Assembly (NCBI GenBank): GCA_014382285.1
Contig: JACNKA010000104.1
Location: forward strand, 1 to 49,156
From: Nitrospinota bacterium
GTDB taxonomy: Bacteria; Nitrospinota; Nitrospinia; Nitrospinales; VA-1
Length of the DNA stretch: 49,156 nucleotides
Direction: 5' to 3'
Shown piece after piece: positions 3,339 through 12,161 of this stretch (the first letter of the stretch is position 1; the number at the start of each line of letters is the position of its first letter). The translations under genes and the position numbers were made by a program. The notes beneath the pieces were generated by a model. That model was not told the DNA's origin, did not search any database, and saw only the letters and a program-made list of their open reading frames with translations.

Positions 3339-6300
3339 TTATAGCTTACCGACTCCACGTCGAGTGGGCGCAGCAAACCCAAGATAACCCGATTCAGTTT
3401 TCTGGATGTTCGGTGCCGGTTTTTTCAGAGTAATGGAAGCTGTGTCGTCCACTTTCTGCCTGTCCCGCTTCTTCCTCTTTGCGGTTCTCTGCCTGGAGCG
3501 AGTCTTTTTATCCGAGTCTTTTCTTTCAGCCACTTCCAGTGTCGGTTGCTTCGGGCCTCCCCAGAAAGACTGGCTCACTTCCATGCCATCAAATTTTCCA
3601 TCGGTTCCCGCAGCCAGCTCAACCAGTTCAAATTTTTTACTGAAAAGATCTGCCGTGAAGGGGCCATTGGGAGAACTGGCGATATGATCTACCGGTGTCT
3701 TTTCTACATAGTTTTGATCATTCAATTGGAAGATATCAAATTTAAGCTGTTGAGTGGTGCCGTCAGAAAGTTGGCCCAGAGTTTTCCCCGTACCGGGTAT
3801 GAGTTCGTTTCTGATATCGCGACGAACAAACAAACATAATCCGGCAGCCACACAATTTGTTTTTCCAGAAATCAGCCCTTCAAATGAAACCTCGACACCG
3901 CCGCCAGCATTATTAATATTAAAAATATCCAGATCATCAAACTCGAAGATGTTGACTTTCCCCGATGTAGAATTGTCGATATCTACGGAATTGACTTTCG
4001 TTTCAATAGCGTTATCTGCACCGAACCCGGTTACCAGATCCGCTACCAGTCTGCCATTTGCCGCATCAATATCAAGCCACGCACTGGTATCGCCCCCGAT
4101 TCTGGTTGAGCTTGGCGGGAATGCAGTACCACCATCGACCACCCCGCCGCTGCTTGAAGTCAACGTCACCGCCGTGTCCGAAGAACTGCTGGTCTTAACC
4201 AAGCCGAGGGTAATGTCTTCATCGGCAGAGAGGACCAGAGTTCCGGAACCCGCGTTCATCACCGTTCCATTCGCCATGGTCAACGCTCCGCCTGAACCGT
4301 TTTTGTCGAGATCGTTGTCAGCGGTGACGGTGATATTTCCGGACGTGGTGGTCAAGTCGCCGGCAGCGGTGAAAATGATGTCATCGTCTGCGCGGAGGCT
4401 GATAGAATCACCGGCTGACCCCGCGCCTGCCACATTCAAAGAATTATCTCCCCCCACTGTCACACTGAGATTTCTACCAACAGTGGAAGTAGAAAGAGTC
4501 ACCGCATTATTGCTGACCAATGTGGCATCGCCGGTTCCTGAAGTGTTCAAGCTCACCGCGCCGGTGAACGCATTAGATGTGTTGTCCAGAAGGATTGCCT
4601 GATTGGCAACATCTGTGGTGAAGATGGATGTCCCCGCTATTGTTAAAGCTCCTGTATCCGTGATCGCCCCGCCTGAAGTGACGCTCAAATTTCCAGTCGT
4701 GGTCACATTCACTCCGAAGTCCACCCCTCCCGTTCCCGCGTCCACAGTCAGGCTATTGAATGAAGATGCGGTGGAAGAAAAGTTCACTGCGCCCGCACCA
4801 GAATTTGCGATCAAAGTCAGCGGTGTAGAAGTTGAAGTCACCCCATCCACCGTGATTGTTCCATTCGTCGCACTCCCTATGGTCAGGTTACTGGCAGTGA
4901 TCTGAGCCAGATCGGCACTACTGAGAGAAAAAACACCCGCACCACCTCCGAGTCCAATCGTGTCTCCCGATTGGGAAACCTGCAAGGTAGTTCCCGCAGT
5001 ACCAGAGTTGATCACACCGTCCGTATTGAGGGACATGCTTTTGGAAGTAATGCTCAACGTGTTGTTAGTTGTATTGAGCGTTTTAAGAGAGTCGATCGTA
5101 AAACTTCCAGTGCCGGTACTGTTTGAATCCGAATTAAAAGTTGTTGTGCCATTAGTAGTCAGGTTTGAAGAAAGTGTGATGCCATCTCCCGCATTCACCG
5201 TCAAGCCTTGAAAAAAGGAGTCCGTGGTTCCAAAAGTGATCGAAGATGCGGAAGCCGTCGCGTTCAATGTGAGTGCGCCAAACTGGTCGCTGTTGGCAGA
5301 GAGAACTCCATCGACTGTGATATTTCCATTCGTGCCATCACCGATGCTAAGGCTACCGGCTGTTATACTTGCTAGTTCCGTATTACTCAGGCTCATGCTA
5401 CCTGTCGTTCCCAGCCCGATAGAAGTTCCTGACTGAGAAGCCAGAATTGTCGTGCCCGCAGTTCCACTACTAAGAGTACTGCTCAAGTCCAGATCTACCG
5501 CAGTAATGGAGAGAGCATTGTTTCCGGTACTCAGTGTCGAGGCAATGGTGAGTGTACCTGCACCCGTATTATCCGTATCGGCATCAAAAGTCGTAGTGCC
5601 TGCCGATGTGAAAGTATTACTTATGGTAATGCCATCGGTTGCGTTTAACGTTATTGCGCCCGGGGTAGTAATGCCACCAGTGGTCGCGTTCAATGCAAGA
5701 GAACCCGTTGCCGAGACAGTGTTGCTGTTGATGACCAAGCCATTGGTGCCTGTTAATGTAAGAGCACCCTGTCCAGTAATGGTTCCACCGCTTTGACCAA
5801 TGGTCAGTTTTCCTGTCGAGCTAAAACTGTTGCTGGCAGAAAAAGTGATGCTGCCATTCACAAGGTTGATATCGCCGGTGCCAGTGATACGGGTCTGCTC
5901 GGTGGTGTCAATATTCATCCCGAAACCGGAACTGAACCCGATGCCCAAAGAACCTCCATCTGAAACATTAATGCTGGTCGAGCTAGTGCCACTGGCAAGT
6001 GTTCCAGTCAAAGTTAGGTCATTGGCAGTCACCGTTAATGCGTTGTTGGTGGTCGATAAAGTGCCTGAGGAAATAATAAAATCACCTGAACCATTATTGT
6101 CGAGATCTGCATCCAGAACCACTGCGCCATTAGCAGCGAAACTGTTTGCCAGGGTTATTCCCGAATTGGCATTGAGTGTCGCCGACCCGGCTGAAGTCAA
6201 TGCGTCACTGACCGTGATACTGCCATTCGAGGAAAGTGTGAGCGCTCCATTTGCGGTGATCGATCCTCCCGAAGCGCCCAGGGTAATGTTTCCGGCCGAT

Positions 6301-9005
6301 GAGGTGATACCCATACCACTGGCAAGTGTTAGCCCTGTGCCACCTTGAAGGGTGATATTGCCCGCACCCGTCAGTGTACTGTTGTTCAAGGTAAGGCCAC
6401 TGATGGCTGTCATGGCTACTGCTCCCGTAGAAGTCAGGGCGCTATTAACGTTTATCGTAGACCCAGCAAGAGTCAGGCTCCCTAAAGAAGTGGCATTACC
6501 TGCGGCAAGAGTCAATGCGCCTGCCGAGTTCAAAGCAACTCCACTTGCTAGCGACAAGGTTGAAGAATTTGCGTTGATGTTTAAAGTGCCGCCGGATGAA
6601 GTAGTAATATTATTATTTAAAGTGATACCGGAAGTTGCGGTCAGGGCAACGGCCCCGGCCGCAGTCAGGTTGCCGGTCAGGGTAATGCTGGAGGGTGCGG
6701 TCAAGGTTAAAGCTCCGGCGGAGGATATTCCGCCAGTCGTCGCGCTCAGTGAAATGTCCCCCGCACTGGTTAAGATGACCCCGCTGGCAATGCTGATATC
6801 ATCCTGTGGCACCACATTCTCAGCAATGTTATTGGAGTCCCCGTCCAGAGTCAGTGCTCCGGCGGTGGTCGTCAGGTTGGCATTGACGTCTATGCCATTT
6901 ACTGCATCAGCCGTTAAAGTCGAGAAAGTGGACGCGCCTTGAAAAAATATCCCTCCTTGTGCACCGGAAATATGTGCGTCTTTCAGTTCCACTCCGCTGG
7001 TGAAGGTACTCGTGGTCTGTGTCACCCCATCAACATAGATAGCCCCGTTATTCGCACTGCCGTTGACGATGAGTTTGCTGCCTCTCATTTTGCCAAGGTC
7101 ACTGTTGCTGATTGTCATGTCACAGGTTCCGGAACACGTAGTGCTTCCAAGACCTATTTCCGTAGTGCTGGACCCGGTTATACTGATGTTACCCGCCCCG
7201 GCGTTTAAGATTGTTGAGGAGCCGGGTAATAACAAGTCCCCAGCGGTCAGAGAAATATCCCCCCCATTAGAGGTCAGATTGCCCAGAGTCAAGTCTCCGC
7301 TTGTGTTAAAAGTTATGTTTCCACCTTGAGTAGATATCGTGTCTTGAGTATCAGAAAAACTAATGGTGCCGTTTGTGACTTTGAAGGTGACCGAGTTGCC
7401 ACTGGTTTGCGCCATGTTGAGCAGGTTGTCGCTGAGGTTGTTCAACACAATACTGTCGTTAGCCAGAAGGATGACGTTTGTGGACGCGGATGCGCCCTCA
7501 AGAGTTTGCTCAGAAATAGTGGCATTGTTTACAGATTGGAAGTTAATGGTTACAGCACCACTGGTGCTGGCCCCTGCGCCATCCGTTATAGTGATCGTGT
7601 CCGGGTCAAGAAGCAGGGTTCCGGTTTTGCCATTAGCAGCGGTGGTGTCCACCGAGCCATCAAAATATAATTCTTCTTTTCCGGATACCTCTACAAACCC
7701 GCCATCGCCAAAATATTTGCCACCGCGACCTTTAACAATACCGAAAAACCGCATACGCCGGTCGGCCCAGAAAATCATCCTGCCACCGTTGCCATTAGTC
7801 ACGGCATCTGCAAAGGTCTGAGTATTTGGTCCAACATATACATCTGTCGCGTTAGGAACCGTGCCGAGACCTTGATAGTCACCACCAAAAAGAAGTGTGC
7901 CTCCACCCAGATCGCCGGAAACATCAATGAGGCCAGTGCCGGAAAAATCCAGCATGTCACCCAGGACATGAACGGTACCCCCTGTTTCCCCTGCATCGTA
8001 GCCCGAGGCATCCAATGTACCCGATACACTGACTGCGCCAGCATCACCTCCCATGAGGATGATTGTTCCGTTTTGCTCAGCCACCGAATGCGCCTGAATG
8101 ACGCCATCCATATTGATCACCCGATCCACAATATTCTAGGCTGCATTAACATCCAGCTGAACCACTCCGCCATCGGCAAAGATGCTTCCGCTATTGGTGA
8201 CAAGAGAAGACAAAACTTCTCCATCCATTCCGGTCACTTGCCCCATCACCTGACTATCCACTGCCAGGTTGATGAGCTGGTCGCCATACAAATCCACCGT
8301 AAAAGTTTTTCCGGAAGCCAGGCTCACCTTGCCCAAACGCGCGTTGATAACTCCCATGTTCTGCACACCGGGAGCGACCAGAGCAACCAGCCCGCCTTCG
8401 GCCGCTGTAATGCTACCCTGATTGACCACCGTCGAAGCCAGACTGGAAGGAACGCCGAAGTTATAATTGCTGCTCAAAAAATCTGCATTGGTAATATCGC
8501 TGGTGGTCGCGAGCAAGCCATGAACATCCACCTGCGCCCCAGCACCAAAAAGAATTCCGTTGGGATTGATCAGCCAGAGATCGCCGTTTGATGTCAACTT
8601 ACCAAAAATCTGCGAAACATCGTTTCCAGTTACCCGGTTGAGCGTGACGCCGCCCTGGGATAATTGAAAATCAACCTGCTCAGTACTGCCAATTCCAAAC
8701 CCCTGCCAGTCGATGATGGCTTTTTCGGTAGTTTGATGAATGGTCATTTGCTGAGAAGAAGGCTGATCGATGGTGGCCGACCCGGCTTGAACTGTCCCGC
8801 CAGTAGGAAGAGCAAAGACCATGGAAGGAAAAATGCCAATAAGATAAGACAAAAATGAAACCAGAAAAATAGCCGTATTGCTCGGTTTTTTCGGAATCCG
8901 AAAAACTCCTCCCCTGCGACGGGTCACGTCCACCGGCTTGGCAGGCAACGAGCAACCGGCGGCTGCGCCGGGGAATGCCCTCTGATTCATTTTAAAAACG
9001 TTCAT
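3339..9005 (-). pseudogene. TpsA filamentous-haemagglutinin-family exoprotein (about 1888 codons) interrupted by one in-frame TAG at 8136-8138
   Basis: ORFs 8136..9005 and 3339..8129 are in the same frame and read VNAA*NIVDRVINMDG across the junction. The N-terminal part has an extended signal peptide (…SMVFA|LPTGG) and a TPS secretion domain (INPNGILFG). The rest is G/S/T/N-rich beta-helix repeats. It lies next to tpsB. Confidence 0.8.
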
Positions 9006-9031
9006 AAAGTTCCCTAAAACTTTGCCGATAG
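9005..9031 (+). promoter_or_regulatory. Putative sigma-28 (FliA) promoter, antisense to tpsB
   Basis: TAAAGTTC-N11-GCCGATAG versus the FliA consensus TAAAGTTT-N11-GCCGATAA. Confidence 0.45.
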
Positions 9032-10747
9032 GCTGAAAAAAGCTCGTCCGTCATTGTTACCTTCTGAAGCCACCTCTCGACTTAGCGGCTTGTTCCATTC
9101 CATATATCCGGAGATCACATCCGTTATGTTGAACCGGACGCCGAGTCCCAACGAATAAAGATCCTGAGATCTGGAACCTGTGGCGATCTCAATGCGATTC
9201 CACACCTTTCCGTAATCGAAAAAGGTGTAAGCCTGCACATCTCTGAAGTATTTTTTCTTTGGCTGAAAAGCTTTTTGGAGTTCCAGCTTAAAAGCCAGTC
9301 CCTGATCTCCAGTAATTTCAGAAGAATCATAAGCCCGACCAAACTGCGCGCCACCCACACCAAATTCTTCGGAAGCCAAAAGTTTTTCAAACGAATACTG
9401 CCAGGAAAGTGCTCCCAGCAACATCCATGAAGGTGCCAGTTGTTGCAGCCGAAGTGCCTCGCCGGTCACCTTGGTGAAGTCGCTATGGCCTGTCGGACGG
9501 GTAAGTTTTTCTGTTCCCGTTTCCGTTGAGTCGAAAATATCAAAGCCCTTGCTCAAATTAAAACTGATCAGATTGATCCCTCGATATTTGTCAACAAAAT
9601 CGTAGGACACCCCCAGATTAAAGATACGAAGGCGGTCTTCTGAATCCAGTGTCCCCAAAATCTCCGTTTCCGTGTCTCGGTTCGTATAACCTACGAATCC
9701 ATTCAGATTTTCAGATCTGGATCGGATGAAGGGATGCGTCAGTTTGAGCGTGAAGGTTTTGCTTTCTCCCACCACCTCAAAATCTTTGAGGGCGGAACCG
9801 GGTTCGGAATCACTGAATGATCCGGAAAAAAACAGTTTGGTGCCTTCCGCAGATATAGGTTGCTCATAGAAGCCGCTAAAAAACTTCAACTCATCCGTAC
9901 TACTGGTCACCACGCCCTGTAAGCCGATGCGCTCATAGTTTTTGAGAAGCGCATTGCTGGACATCCCGGCATTGATCTGGATCGGTCCGTTAAACTTAGT
10001 GCCTCGGTTGTCCGCACCAAAACTTCCGTCATAGCCTTTATTAGTAAGAATCAGTGTCAGGTTAGTGGCACCCTGTTTAAACTTCGAAGGAGTCAGAACC
10101 GATTTGACCGAAACCCCCGGCAAGTCATCCACCAAAAGTAAATATCTTTCAAGGTCCCTGGCTTTCAGAGGTCGGGATTTTAAAAGTGCCTTTCGATATT
10201 CGTTGAGAAGTTTTCGTGGACCGCGCACCTGGCCTTGAATAGCAACCCGATCAACAAAACCCTCAATCACATCAATTTGAACCACGCCCTCCTCAATTTT
10301 CTGAGGAGGCACCACTGCCTTGGAAAGAATGTATCCATCGGTGCGATACATATTTGTGATTTCCTGAGCGATGATATAAACCTGCTCAAGGTTTACTCTT
10401 CGATGCAGATACTTTCTGAACAACCGAGAAAATTTTCGCTTGCCATAAATCGTTGAGCCTTTGATGACCATTCTCTGGAGAAGAAAATTCACCTTCCTCA
10501 TCTCGGCTGGAAAAGAAGGCTTTAAGCTGTCCGGTTTTACAGGAACCCTCTGCGATTGAGGATATTCCTGTTTTTTGAATCTCTCTTCAAACCGGCCTGG
10601 GGCCGCCTGTTTATAAGTCTGATCCCGTCCCTGAGGGGTAATTTGAGCGTAGGTTAGCGATGCCATAGAACTCCACCAAAGGCAGACAAAAACCCCTATT
10701 AGCAATATTTTGCTAAAAATTCGATTATTTGTCTGGTCCCAGTTCAT
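9014..10747 (-). CDS. TpsB (ShlB/FhaC/HecB family) two-partner secretion outer-membrane transporter
   Basis: Signal peptide, POTRA motifs (ITNMYRTDGYILSKAVVPPQ, VIEGFV), DNRGT motif, beta-barrel with GRAY loop and C-terminal Phe. Start placed at MNWDQ (10747); the ORF is open to 10906. Confidence 0.92.
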   Translation of the reverse strand: MNWDQTNNRIFSKILLIGVFVCLWWSSMASLTYAQITPQGRDQTYKQAAPGRFEERFKKQEYPQSQRVPVKPDSLKPSFPAEMRKVNFLLQRMVIKGSTIYGKRKFSRLFRKYLHRRVNLEQVYIIAQEITNMYRTDGYILSKAVVPPQKIEEGVVQIDVIEGFVDRVAIQGQVRGPRKLLNEYRKALLKSRPLKARDLERYLLLVDDLPGVSVKSVLTPSKFKQGATNLTLILTNKGYDGSFGADNRGTKFNGPIQINAGMSSNALLKNYERIGLQGVVTSSTDELKFFSGFYEQPISAEGTKLFFSGSFSDSEPGSALKDFEVVGESKTFTLKLTHPFIRSRSENLNGFVGYTNRDTETEILGTLDSEDRLRIFNLGVSYDFVDKYRGINLISFNLSKGFDIFDSTETGTEKLTRPTGHSDFTKVTGEALRLQQLAPSWMLLGALSWQYSFEKLLASEEFGVGGAQFGRAYDSSEITGDQGLAFKLELQKAFQPKKKYFRDVQAYTFFDYGKVWNRIEIATGSRSQDLYSLGLGVRFNITDVISGYMEWNKPLSREVASEGNNDGRAFFSLSAKF

Positions 10748-10996
10748 ACATCTTTCCCCGTTCTTAACGGCATAAAGGGGTCTAAAGTTAAGCGTTTCTG
10801 ACATCCACCAAAATCCTTGAAATACCGAATACAAAGGGGTTACATGTTTTTCACCGGAAGCAAAACCCAACGGCCAACTCTGCAATAATCTGAATTTATT
10901 ACCCATAAATCAGCGTGTTTCACCCTTCAACCCAGGCCAGAAAACCCTTTGTTTCAATTAACCCCAAAATTGGGCGTAGTTGTTCGCAAGAAGGTG

Positions 10997-11012
10997 AGCA
11001 AGGAGTATGCCA
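10997..11012 (-). promoter_or_regulatory. Sigma-54 (-24/-12) promoter for tpsB-tpsA
   Basis: The minus strand reads TGGCATACTCCTTGCT, which is GG-N10-GC with the TGGCA…TTGCT consensus, oriented towards tpsB. Confidence 0.7.
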
Positions 11013-11344
11013 AACGGAAGGGTTCACGAGAAAGCGCATAACCAGCTTAAATACATATGTTTATGAGATTGTTTGACGGGGCTGTGTAATTAGGCGTCGC
11101 AGCTCACAAGGTAATAATTTCATCAATCCGTCAATAAATTGTTTTGTTCACTAATTTTCAGGAAGTGGGGCGGGAAAATCTGGCAGGACAAGAAAAACAG
11201 GGAGTTCCAAATATTCACACTATATAGATTTACAAACACGTCTTTATTATTTATGATGGGTGGCAAAAAACAGGCCTTTTCAATAGCTGGTGTGAGGGGC
11301 AGATCGACCACTTAGGACACTGAATTATGAAAAGGAAAAATACG

Positions 11345-11533
11345 ATGGTGATTTTGAATATGTGCGACTTTTGTTCGTACGAGAGGTGTGATTGTGACGC
11401 TCAGCCGACTCTGGCTGACCGGCTGAATCTTGACAACCTCGACTCGGCGCAAAAAAGCTTCGTGGTAGCTTGCGACAAGTATAGAAGCCCTGTGGATGTG
11501 CTCAAAGAGAGATTTCACGACCCCAACCTGTAG
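11345..11533 (+). CDS. Small cysteine-rich protein (CxxC-x4-CxC…C)
   Basis: AAGGA RBS before the ATG at 11345 (ORF open from 11327); 62 aa with five Cys. Confidence 0.65.
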   Translation: MVILNMCDFCSYERCDCDAQPTLADRLNLDNLDSAQKSFVVACDKYRSPVDVLKERFHDPNL

Positions 11534-11732: not shown

Positions 11733-12161
11733 ATGCCTTGGGAAAAGGATAAGAAAAAAAGGTTGGCTGAATATCTTTGGGCGGAGATCAATAAAGCAAT
11801 CCTGAAATCTCCTGATGTGCAGCTCGCCATAAAGAAGCTTGAAAAATTACAGCTCCTTGATTATGTGGCAGAGTTTAATCTCGTGCTGGAAGTGGACAAG
11901 CTGATAGAAAGCATTTTGAAAAAAGGTGCAGAGAAAGAAGCCGAACCTGACTCGATCCACAAGGAAACACAACTGCATGACGAGCATGACCCGGAAGAAA
12001 AAGCATTGCCCAATATTTCCTCGGTCTTTTCTTCCAAATCCAAACAGTGGGTTGACGGTAGTGCCCTGTCAGAAAATGAAATCCTCTTTGAAGAATATTT
12101 GAATCGGGGGTTCGATGAAAAACACTGGATGGAAAAGGCTAAAATCCGCTTCGACAGCTAG
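11733..12161 (+). CDS. Hypothetical protein
   Basis: AAGGGG RBS; 142-aa ORF with a helical N-terminus, acidic linker and conserved-looking C-terminus. Confidence 0.75.
   Translation: MPWEKDKKKRLAEYLWAEINKAILKSPDVQLAIKKLEKLQLLDYVAEFNLVLEVDKLIESILKKGAEKEAEPDSIHKETQLHDEHDPEEKALPNISSVFSSKSKQWVDGSALSENEILFEEYLNRGFDEKHWMEKAKIRFDS

Follow-up and report, generated by a model that had tools for sequence, protein, structure and literature searches.

The two-partner secretion (TPS) operon tpsBA of a Nitrospinota bacterium raises the question of whether an adhesin is set against motility or is made together with the flagellum. In the textbook case, adhesion is set against motility through FleQ and cyclic di-GMP (c-di-GMP). 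The operon lies on the minus strand of a 49,156-nt stretch of DNA, hereafter the window, which comprises contig JACNKA010000104.1 of assembly GCA_014382285.1 (contig C168 of our genome G000, 2.97 Mb and 94% complete). A first-pass annotation of this DNA had recognized a TPS adhesin-type operon, and the domain content agrees, with POTRA and ShlB domains in tpsB and a TPS domain in tpsA. The same annotation proposed that, while flagella are made, antisense transcription into tpsB driven by the flagellar sigma factor FliA could silence the adhesin. It held that a genome without fliA would speak against such a switch; G000 encodes FliA along with RpoN, flagellins and 11 typical sigma-54 activators. 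Relatives of TpsB at 65–89% identity come from loci of which 17 of 18 are labelled as Nitrospina, Nitrospinaceae or Nitrospinota metagenome-assembled genomes. Our analysis turns this proposal around: through sigma-54, the adhesin appears to belong to the flagellar regulon, and it is lost along with the flagellum. We consider it reasonably probable that tpsBA belongs to a FleQ/FlrA-type enhancer regulon with the early flagellar genes and is made with the flagellum, and that the antisense FliA-like site is a product of chance. The tps adhesin would then be co-activated with flagella, not opposed to them, which we regard as probable.

The minus-strand sigma-54 motif TGGCATACTCCTTGCT reported at positions 11012–10997, pointing into tpsBA, is present as claimed. 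It carries the -24 GG and -12 GC elements at exact spacing, ranks 11th genome-wide when scored by a matrix that was trained on 11 other sites, and places the predicted start site near position 10986. The site is kept in all 19 orthologs with upstream sequence (the count omits L025, which comes without upstream DNA), down to 57% TpsB identity and into another genus. Together with the presence of rpoN, this supports the sense promoter. Upstream of it lie two candidate enhancer boxes. Box A (11130–11143; GTCAATAAATTGTT on the plus strand) is a FleQ/FlrA-type pseudopalindrome located about 145–157 nt upstream of the predicted start. It matches 12 of 14 positions of the Pseudomonas aeruginosa FleQ box consensus, GTCAAT-N2-ATTGAC, as that consensus is quoted in the available text of PMC12271599. 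Across all 20 tps loci, one of which is a duplicate, the TTGAC of box A and the -24 element are 120–123 nt apart. Box B (11110–11124; GGTAATAATTTCATC on the plus strand) is about two helical turns away from box A. Between the boxes and the promoter lies an AT-rich tract (11039–11065), with similar, equally distant counterparts in tps orthologs and in flagellar sigma-54 promoters; we take it to be a putative site of the integration host factor (IHF) type.

Conserved TGAC boxes are present at a similar distance in the flgC, fliL, flgF and flgB promoters, and none is present at pilM. Using a box matrix trained on those four flagellar promoters only, the tps promoter scored 10.6 bits, within the top 1.0% of 5,346 intergenic windows, and ranked eighth of 30 sigma-54 candidates. 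Ahead of it were the four training promoters, the promoter of an operon leading to a flagellar two-component pair, and the promoters of two unknown genes. All 20 tps loci scored between 8.1 and 14.8 bits (in one of them the best match was box B), all four pilM orthologs fell below 0, and none of 300 column-shuffled matrices reached the tps median. The spacing W4-TGAC-N18-CC, a pattern that was defined only after inspecting the promoters, occurs in 18/20 tps, 9/12 fliL and 11/12 flgF promoters, and in 0/5 pilM promoters. With a conserved sigma-54 promoter and tandem boxes of the flagellar type, tpsBA is likely to respond to the same FleQ/FlrA-type activator. We rejected the possibility that the boxes belong to a divergent small gene: their distance to the sigma-54 promoter is fixed while that to the divergent promoter varies, and the box is kept in loci where no divergent genes were found (L022/L082, L089, L091 and L031).

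The operon also follows the flagellum across genomes. In a sample of 25 genomes of the family f1, with the flagellar rod gene flgC as marker, 15 carried both tpsB and flgC, nine carried neither and none carried one alone. G018 has flgC and, at the edge of a contig, the 3′ half of tpsA, which brings the genomes with both to 16 of 25. Queries with tpsA gave no match in the nine genomes lacking flgC, nor was fliA found in the five of these that were tested; three of the nine are less than 90% complete (57, 74 and 86%). A clean deletion of the tps cassette, with its flanking genes side by side, is seen in G006, G008, G010 and G019, synteny being not judgeable in G007, G014, G021 and G023. In a tree built from clpP-clpX-lon (G001, G005 and G015, without a clpX match, were omitted), the non-flagellated genomes did not form one clade (p-AU 1e-7), and five changes are needed to explain their distribution. 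Since the boxes are shared with early flagellar genes and tps was not found in the nine genomes without flgC, tpsBA is likely to be on with the flagellum.

A candidate for the activator is encoded on contig C1 of G000 (C1:17410–18462). This protein of 350 aa has P. aeruginosa FleQ (8p53) as its best PDB match, over the AAA+ and helix-turn-helix domains. It shares the RTTLVEK helix of FleQ, which is found in none of the other 10 typical activators, and retains one of its two tandem arginines. The protein lacks an N-terminal domain: in 30 of 30 loci, an in-frame stop precedes the AAA+ start by 2–27 codons. Of the c-di-GMP pocket residues named in the available text of PMC10723142, R185 alone is kept, and R138, R144, R151, E330 and R334 are not. 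On its sequence, the C1 protein is classed as FleQ-like and not as FleQ, and this receiver-less protein is likely to bind boxes A and B. Upstream of the FleQ-like gene itself (L200–L229), a sigma-70-like promoter is accompanied by conserved GTCAA/TTGAC boxes, which suggests that the gene may be autoregulated through them.

In the mechanism that we favor, the C1 activator would bind boxes A and B upstream of tpsBA, IHF would bend the spacer so that the DNA loops through the IHF-like tract, and sigma-54 polymerase would be activated near position 10986 to transcribe tpsBA; we consider binding, bending and activation likely. The same activator would switch on the fliL, flgB, flgC and flgF operons together with tpsBA, and the fliL operon would in turn lead to fliA. 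FliA could then add late sense transcription from a weak motif in the tpsB leader (10792–10763), a step to which we give an even chance. The antisense site would be a neutral near-consensus sequence in a lineage whose tpsA was already truncated.

Several observations weigh against this reading. A 12/14 match to the FleQ box is by itself common, with 26 in the genome, and the W4-TGAC-N18-CC spacing is found in 0/14 flgC and 0/11 flgB promoters. None of 12 tpsB loci outside the family has a sigma-54 motif within 450 nt, and no tpsB match was obtained in several flagellated genomes from other families. The sign test for co-loss is not significant, with four of four supported independent pairs concordant (p 0.125); before G018 was recoded, three to four of the four pairs were concordant. 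General streamlining is a confound, as pilM was not found in two of five non-flagellated genomes and was a fragment in another. Moreover, the FleQ-like gene looks intact in seven of the nine non-flagellated genomes, being decayed in G008 and G014, and is therefore not flagellum-specific.

The intact FleQ-like gene, the loss or breakage of pilM in three of five genomes and the sign test would also fit a different arrangement, in which the boxes serve a general regulator of surface genes, the timing of tps is untied to flagella, and co-loss reflects genome streamlining. The two sigma-54 promoters of unknown genes that carry the box point the same way. Candidates for such a regulator are the FleQ-like protein, if its role is broader, and the remaining members of the set of 11 activators, for example the FleR/FlrC-like protein at C189. 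However, the five known box targets are all flagellar or lead into a flagellar two-component operon, and tps without flgC occurs in 0/25 genomes. G014, moreover, keeps an intact pilM yet has neither flgC nor tps. We regard this alternative as unlikely.

The FleQ-like protein might instead act as in Pseudomonas, activating flagella and repressing tps through the tandem boxes until c-di-GMP rises. Tandem FleQ boxes in P. aeruginosa mark biofilm promoters that stay repressed when c-di-GMP is absent, that of the TPS pair cdrAB among them, according to the available text of PMC10723142, and in G000 an flhG/fleN-like gene, identified by eye, adjoins flhF and fliA. Those biofilm promoters are sigma-70-dependent in the same account, whereas here the boxes stand at enhancer distance from a sigma-54 site, as they do at fliL and flgF. 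The FleQ-like protein is also without the N-terminal domain in the relatives examined, and its c-di-GMP pocket is reduced to R185 among the named residues. Repression of this kind therefore seems very improbable.

Equally improbable, in our judgement, is the antisense switch with which the question began. The plus-strand match TAAAGTTC-N11-GCCGATAG (9005–9031) exists as described and overlaps the A of the tpsA ATG (9005), an 8-nt spacer, the tpsB stop and the codons for L-S-A-K-F. The FliA consensus is meaningful in this lineage, its top matches preceding flagellin and a flgM-like gene (a label assigned by eye). The antisense site is one of 10 sites with at least 14/16 consensus positions in 2.97 Mb, and three Markov-simulated genomes contained 4, 4 and 5 such sites. 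When a matrix was built from 39 promoters of the genus, whose weakest training site scores 20.2 bits, the antisense site reached 20.1 bits, which puts it at the bottom of the range of real promoters, and ranked tenth in the genome. At least 20 bits were reached by 11 sites, as against 0, 5, 1 and 0 in four simulated genomes. Thus, in the genome-wide ranking that the first-pass annotation had suggested, the site scores well but still falls within the tail expected by chance, because simulated genomes yield such sites, at 0–5 per genome.

Conservation argues against the switch. TAAAG and CCGATA are both retained in 0/13 same-genus tpsB orthologs, which score -10.0 to 7.7 bits and have lost the motif through synonymous changes, and fliA is present in 11 of those 13 genomes. 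The flgM promoter retains at least 13/16 positions in 12/12 relatives. The codons for Leu-Ser-Ala fix five of the eight -10 bases; the first-pass annotation had itself cautioned that a -10 element within codons may be chance. Alignment of orthologs for retention of GCCGATA and TAAA had been proposed as a check; the free third-codon positions proved to be no more conserved than the gene average. The third base of Ser is shared by 36% and that of Leu by 56% of comparable orthologs, against a mean of 56% over 204 fourfold sites in tpsB, and the two co-occur in 1/13 orthologs. With a softer matrix, 5/14 close orthologs scored 11.6–13.2 bits, about the top 1% of background, which is a point against chance; none of the 14 reached 16.2 bits, the score of the weakest real promoter.

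Some features do favor transcription from this site. Its -35 is identical to the -35 of a flagellin promoter, run X7, which belongs to another study, has a contig that also carries the site, and intragenic FliA sites in Escherichia coli are mostly active promoters, as reported in the available text of 10.1101/188474. That text also judges them to be unconserved and unlikely to be regulatory. The complete match is found only in G000, and we conclude that it probably arose by chance from the codons used in a single lineage, where it may or may not fire and may do so without being a selected switch. At most, it would form a recent lineage-specific loop, in which a FleQ-like activator turns tps on and FliA then turns it off.

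The state of the adhesin gene bears on the same point. Both genes lie on the minus strand. tpsB (9014–10747) encodes an intact 577-aa outer-membrane transporter with POTRA domain and ShlB barrel, matching PF08479 and PF03865 and, in the PDB, CdiB and FhaC. Its start is likely the ATG at 10747, downstream of the start of the long open reading frame (ORF), because orthologs have stops within the first 53 codons of that long ORF. The orthologs L081/L020 and L024 have no ATG at the homologous position and have an in-frame ATG about 45 nt upstream; this ATG precedes the sense FliA-like motif described below and misfits a start site downstream of that motif. Relaxed selection on tpsB was considered and not seen, as the gene carries 3 private changes at near-invariant sites compared with 3–25 in orthologs.

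tpsA is interrupted. Its 5′ part (8136–9005) encodes 289 aa with a long signal region and a TPS domain (PF05860, E 7.8e-29; TIGR01901 also matches) and ends at an in-frame premature TAG (8138–8136, codon 290) that had been missed in the first-pass annotation, as had the likely tpsB start and the conserved boxes of the leader and upstream of the sigma-54 site. The 3′ part (3339–8135) continues in the same frame, is open for about 1,598 codons and encodes a repeat passenger with DUF5649. A full-length tpsA ORF of 1,813–1,949 aa is found in 14 of 16 long ortholog loci; of the remaining two, one reaches the end of its locus and one (L081, in G016) has a separate candidate frameshift near codon 1,195. 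None of the 16 stops at the codon-290 site. The TAG is not a sequencing error, since it is bridged without differences by contigs from X8 and X10, runs that belong to two other studies; support was counted from these two runs, X7 contigs ending too close and X3 being possibly the source run. Recoding was also rejected. TAG terminates 341 of 1,520 long ORFs, and no suppressor tRNA was found, there being no CUA anticodon among the 30 tRNAs found in the genome. In run X8, the 5′ end of tpsA (window 8842–9005) is also covered by another contig that diverges from the first, indicating a co-occurring relative or strain.

The intact full-length passenger expected of two-partner secretion (type Vb) is thus absent here. 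With the passenger truncated at 289 aa, the tpsBA system is probably non-functional in G000, little is left for a FliA switch to control, and any antisense transcription in this genome is probably inconsequential.

A second FliA-like motif lies on the sense strand, in the 240-nt tpsB leader. An alignment of 20 leaders revealed two conserved blocks. A conserved 32-nt element (10810–10841, minus strand), with a single strong copy in the genome, is likely to be a protein-binding or bending site acting as DNA. The leader RNA showed no sign of structure, with 0 compensatory pairs and an empty consensus fold across the 20 leaders and a z-score of +0.88; a riboswitch or structured leader was rejected, there being a single sub-threshold Rfam match and no covarying helices. 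Conservation as an N-terminal coding extension of tpsB was likewise rejected on account of stops and frame-changing indels in orthologs. The second block reads TAAC/TTAAC...RCCGTTAA on the sense strand. The sense FliA-like motif itself, CTTAACTT-N13-GCCGTTAAG (10763–10792, minus strand), is a candidate weak late promoter 16 nt before the tpsB start. Its position is fixed, and it scores 10.0–15.5 bits in the window and in 14/14 close orthologs, under a matrix that gives a background 99th percentile of 10.8 bits and 16.2–22.5 bits for real FliA promoters. Scores are 4.6–10.3 bits in five distant orthologs and only 2–8 bits with a stricter matrix. Similar motifs precede 4/12 tpsB loci in other families.

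A matrix of the second block retrieved FliA-type promoters, the best of them upstream of a flaG-like gene (PF03646). This stand-alone flaG-like gene (L230, C58:14164) is preceded by a TAAAG-type -35, N11 and a CGTTAA core in 13/13 genomes. A predicted Shewanella FliA promoter with an identical -10 appears in the available text of PMC3765264. From these sequence comparisons, whether the sense motif acts as a weak late FliA promoter could go either way; if it does, FliA would turn the adhesin on, not off. We do not favor reading the motif as an extracytoplasmic function (ECF) sigma promoter, AAC-N16/17-CGT being what we assume to be the ECF consensus, because that pattern is absent upstream of three ECF-type sigma genes and the leader motif's matrix retrieves FliA-type promoters instead.

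Other features accompany the locus and its promoter type. Two ORFs diverge from the tps promoter, at 11327–11533 (plus strand; 68 aa, Cys-rich) and 11733–12161 (plus strand; 142 aa), for neither of which a convincing family match was obtained. They are conserved in most orthologous loci and were deleted together with tpsBA in G006, G008, G010 and G019. A sigma-70-like promoter of the 68-aa ORF is found at 11229–11257; scans for sigma-70 promoters and terminators showed no excess over shuffles. Elsewhere in the genome, the sigma-54 promoters of a 41-aa ORF (L144, C137:8896) and a 128-aa ORF (L143, C16:2572) have enhancer boxes of 12.4 and 13.6 bits, respectively, and L144 also overlaps a FliA-like motif. 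Finally, an 80-aa protein consisting of sigma-70 region 4 alone (L148, C35:3688–3930), with a partial FliA-family match, sits behind the top-scoring sigma-54 promoter of the genome; it is possibly a decoy or an anti-sigma antagonist.

The data provide a first sketch of the flagellar promoter grammar of a major group of marine nitrite oxidizers, made up of a FleQ-type enhancer and a FliA motif with a CGTTAA variant. They also divide the family into lineages with flagellum plus adhesin and bare lineages, which can be compared against particle-attached and free-living habitats. A literature search that covered few subscription papers returned none on Nitrospina with TPS and flagella, or on filamentous hemagglutinin with FleQ, RpoN and a flagellar regulon. 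For Nitrospina with FleQ it returned one Nitrospira paper, and the related papers found made no mention of Nitrospinaceae.

Known systems resemble this locus in part. Like the intragenic FliA promoters of E. coli and Salmonella, the antisense site is consensus-like, lies over coding sequence, is unconserved in relatives and may be active while yielding unstable RNA (10.1101/188474 and 10.1101/2020.09.09.289983, available texts). Unlike them, it is known as a sequence match alone, whereas they were mapped experimentally. The one conserved case in these accounts, the promoter of motA that lies within flhC, places constraints on codons, which the antisense site does not.

As for the adhesin, the nearest solved relative of the N-terminal part of TpsA is EtpA (E 4e-39, against 6e-26 for the next protein). 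The N-terminal domain of EtpA from enterotoxigenic E. coli (ETEC) is reported to bind flagellin in the available text of PMC10284417. This raises the tentative and, on balance, doubtful idea that TpsA is a flagellum-mounted adhesin of marine nitrite oxidizers, an environmental counterpart of EtpA that is wired into the flagellar cascade at two tiers and discarded with the flagellum. The early tier would consist of the receiver-less, c-di-GMP-blind FleQ-like activator with sigma-54, and the late tier of the sense FliA promoter. If true, the flagellum itself would let motile Nitrospinaceae attach to particles or to ammonia-oxidizing partners. The likeness to EtpA covers the secretion domain only and comes from sequence. 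Unlike ETEC EtpBA, the tps locus has no glycosyltransferase gene seen beside it, and its host is a free-living marine nitrite oxidizer.

For the activator and its boxes, the closest comparisons are with Desulfovibrio vulgaris and P. aeruginosa. The single-component FlrA/FleQ-like regulator DVU2894 has the predicted motif yGTCA-N6-TGACr and, as described in PMC4641369, resembles the present system in its box motif, in its small flagellar regulon and in the boxes upstream of the regulator's own gene; unlike here, the targets listed for it in the available text of that paper include no TPS operon. The FleQ regulon of P. aeruginosa, which includes the TPS adhesin pair cdrAB (PMC10723142, available text), resembles ours in its FleQ-type box, in the tandem arrangement of boxes at an operon for a TPS adhesin and in the type of regulator that serves flagellar sigma-54 promoters. 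By that account, sigma-70 serves its adhesin promoters, which are set against motility by way of c-di-GMP. In our system, the boxes form a putative sigma-54 enhancer and the activator lacks an N-terminal domain and most c-di-GMP contacts, and co-activation is therefore predicted. The operon's probable place in the flagellar regulon is a new form of FleQ-type control.

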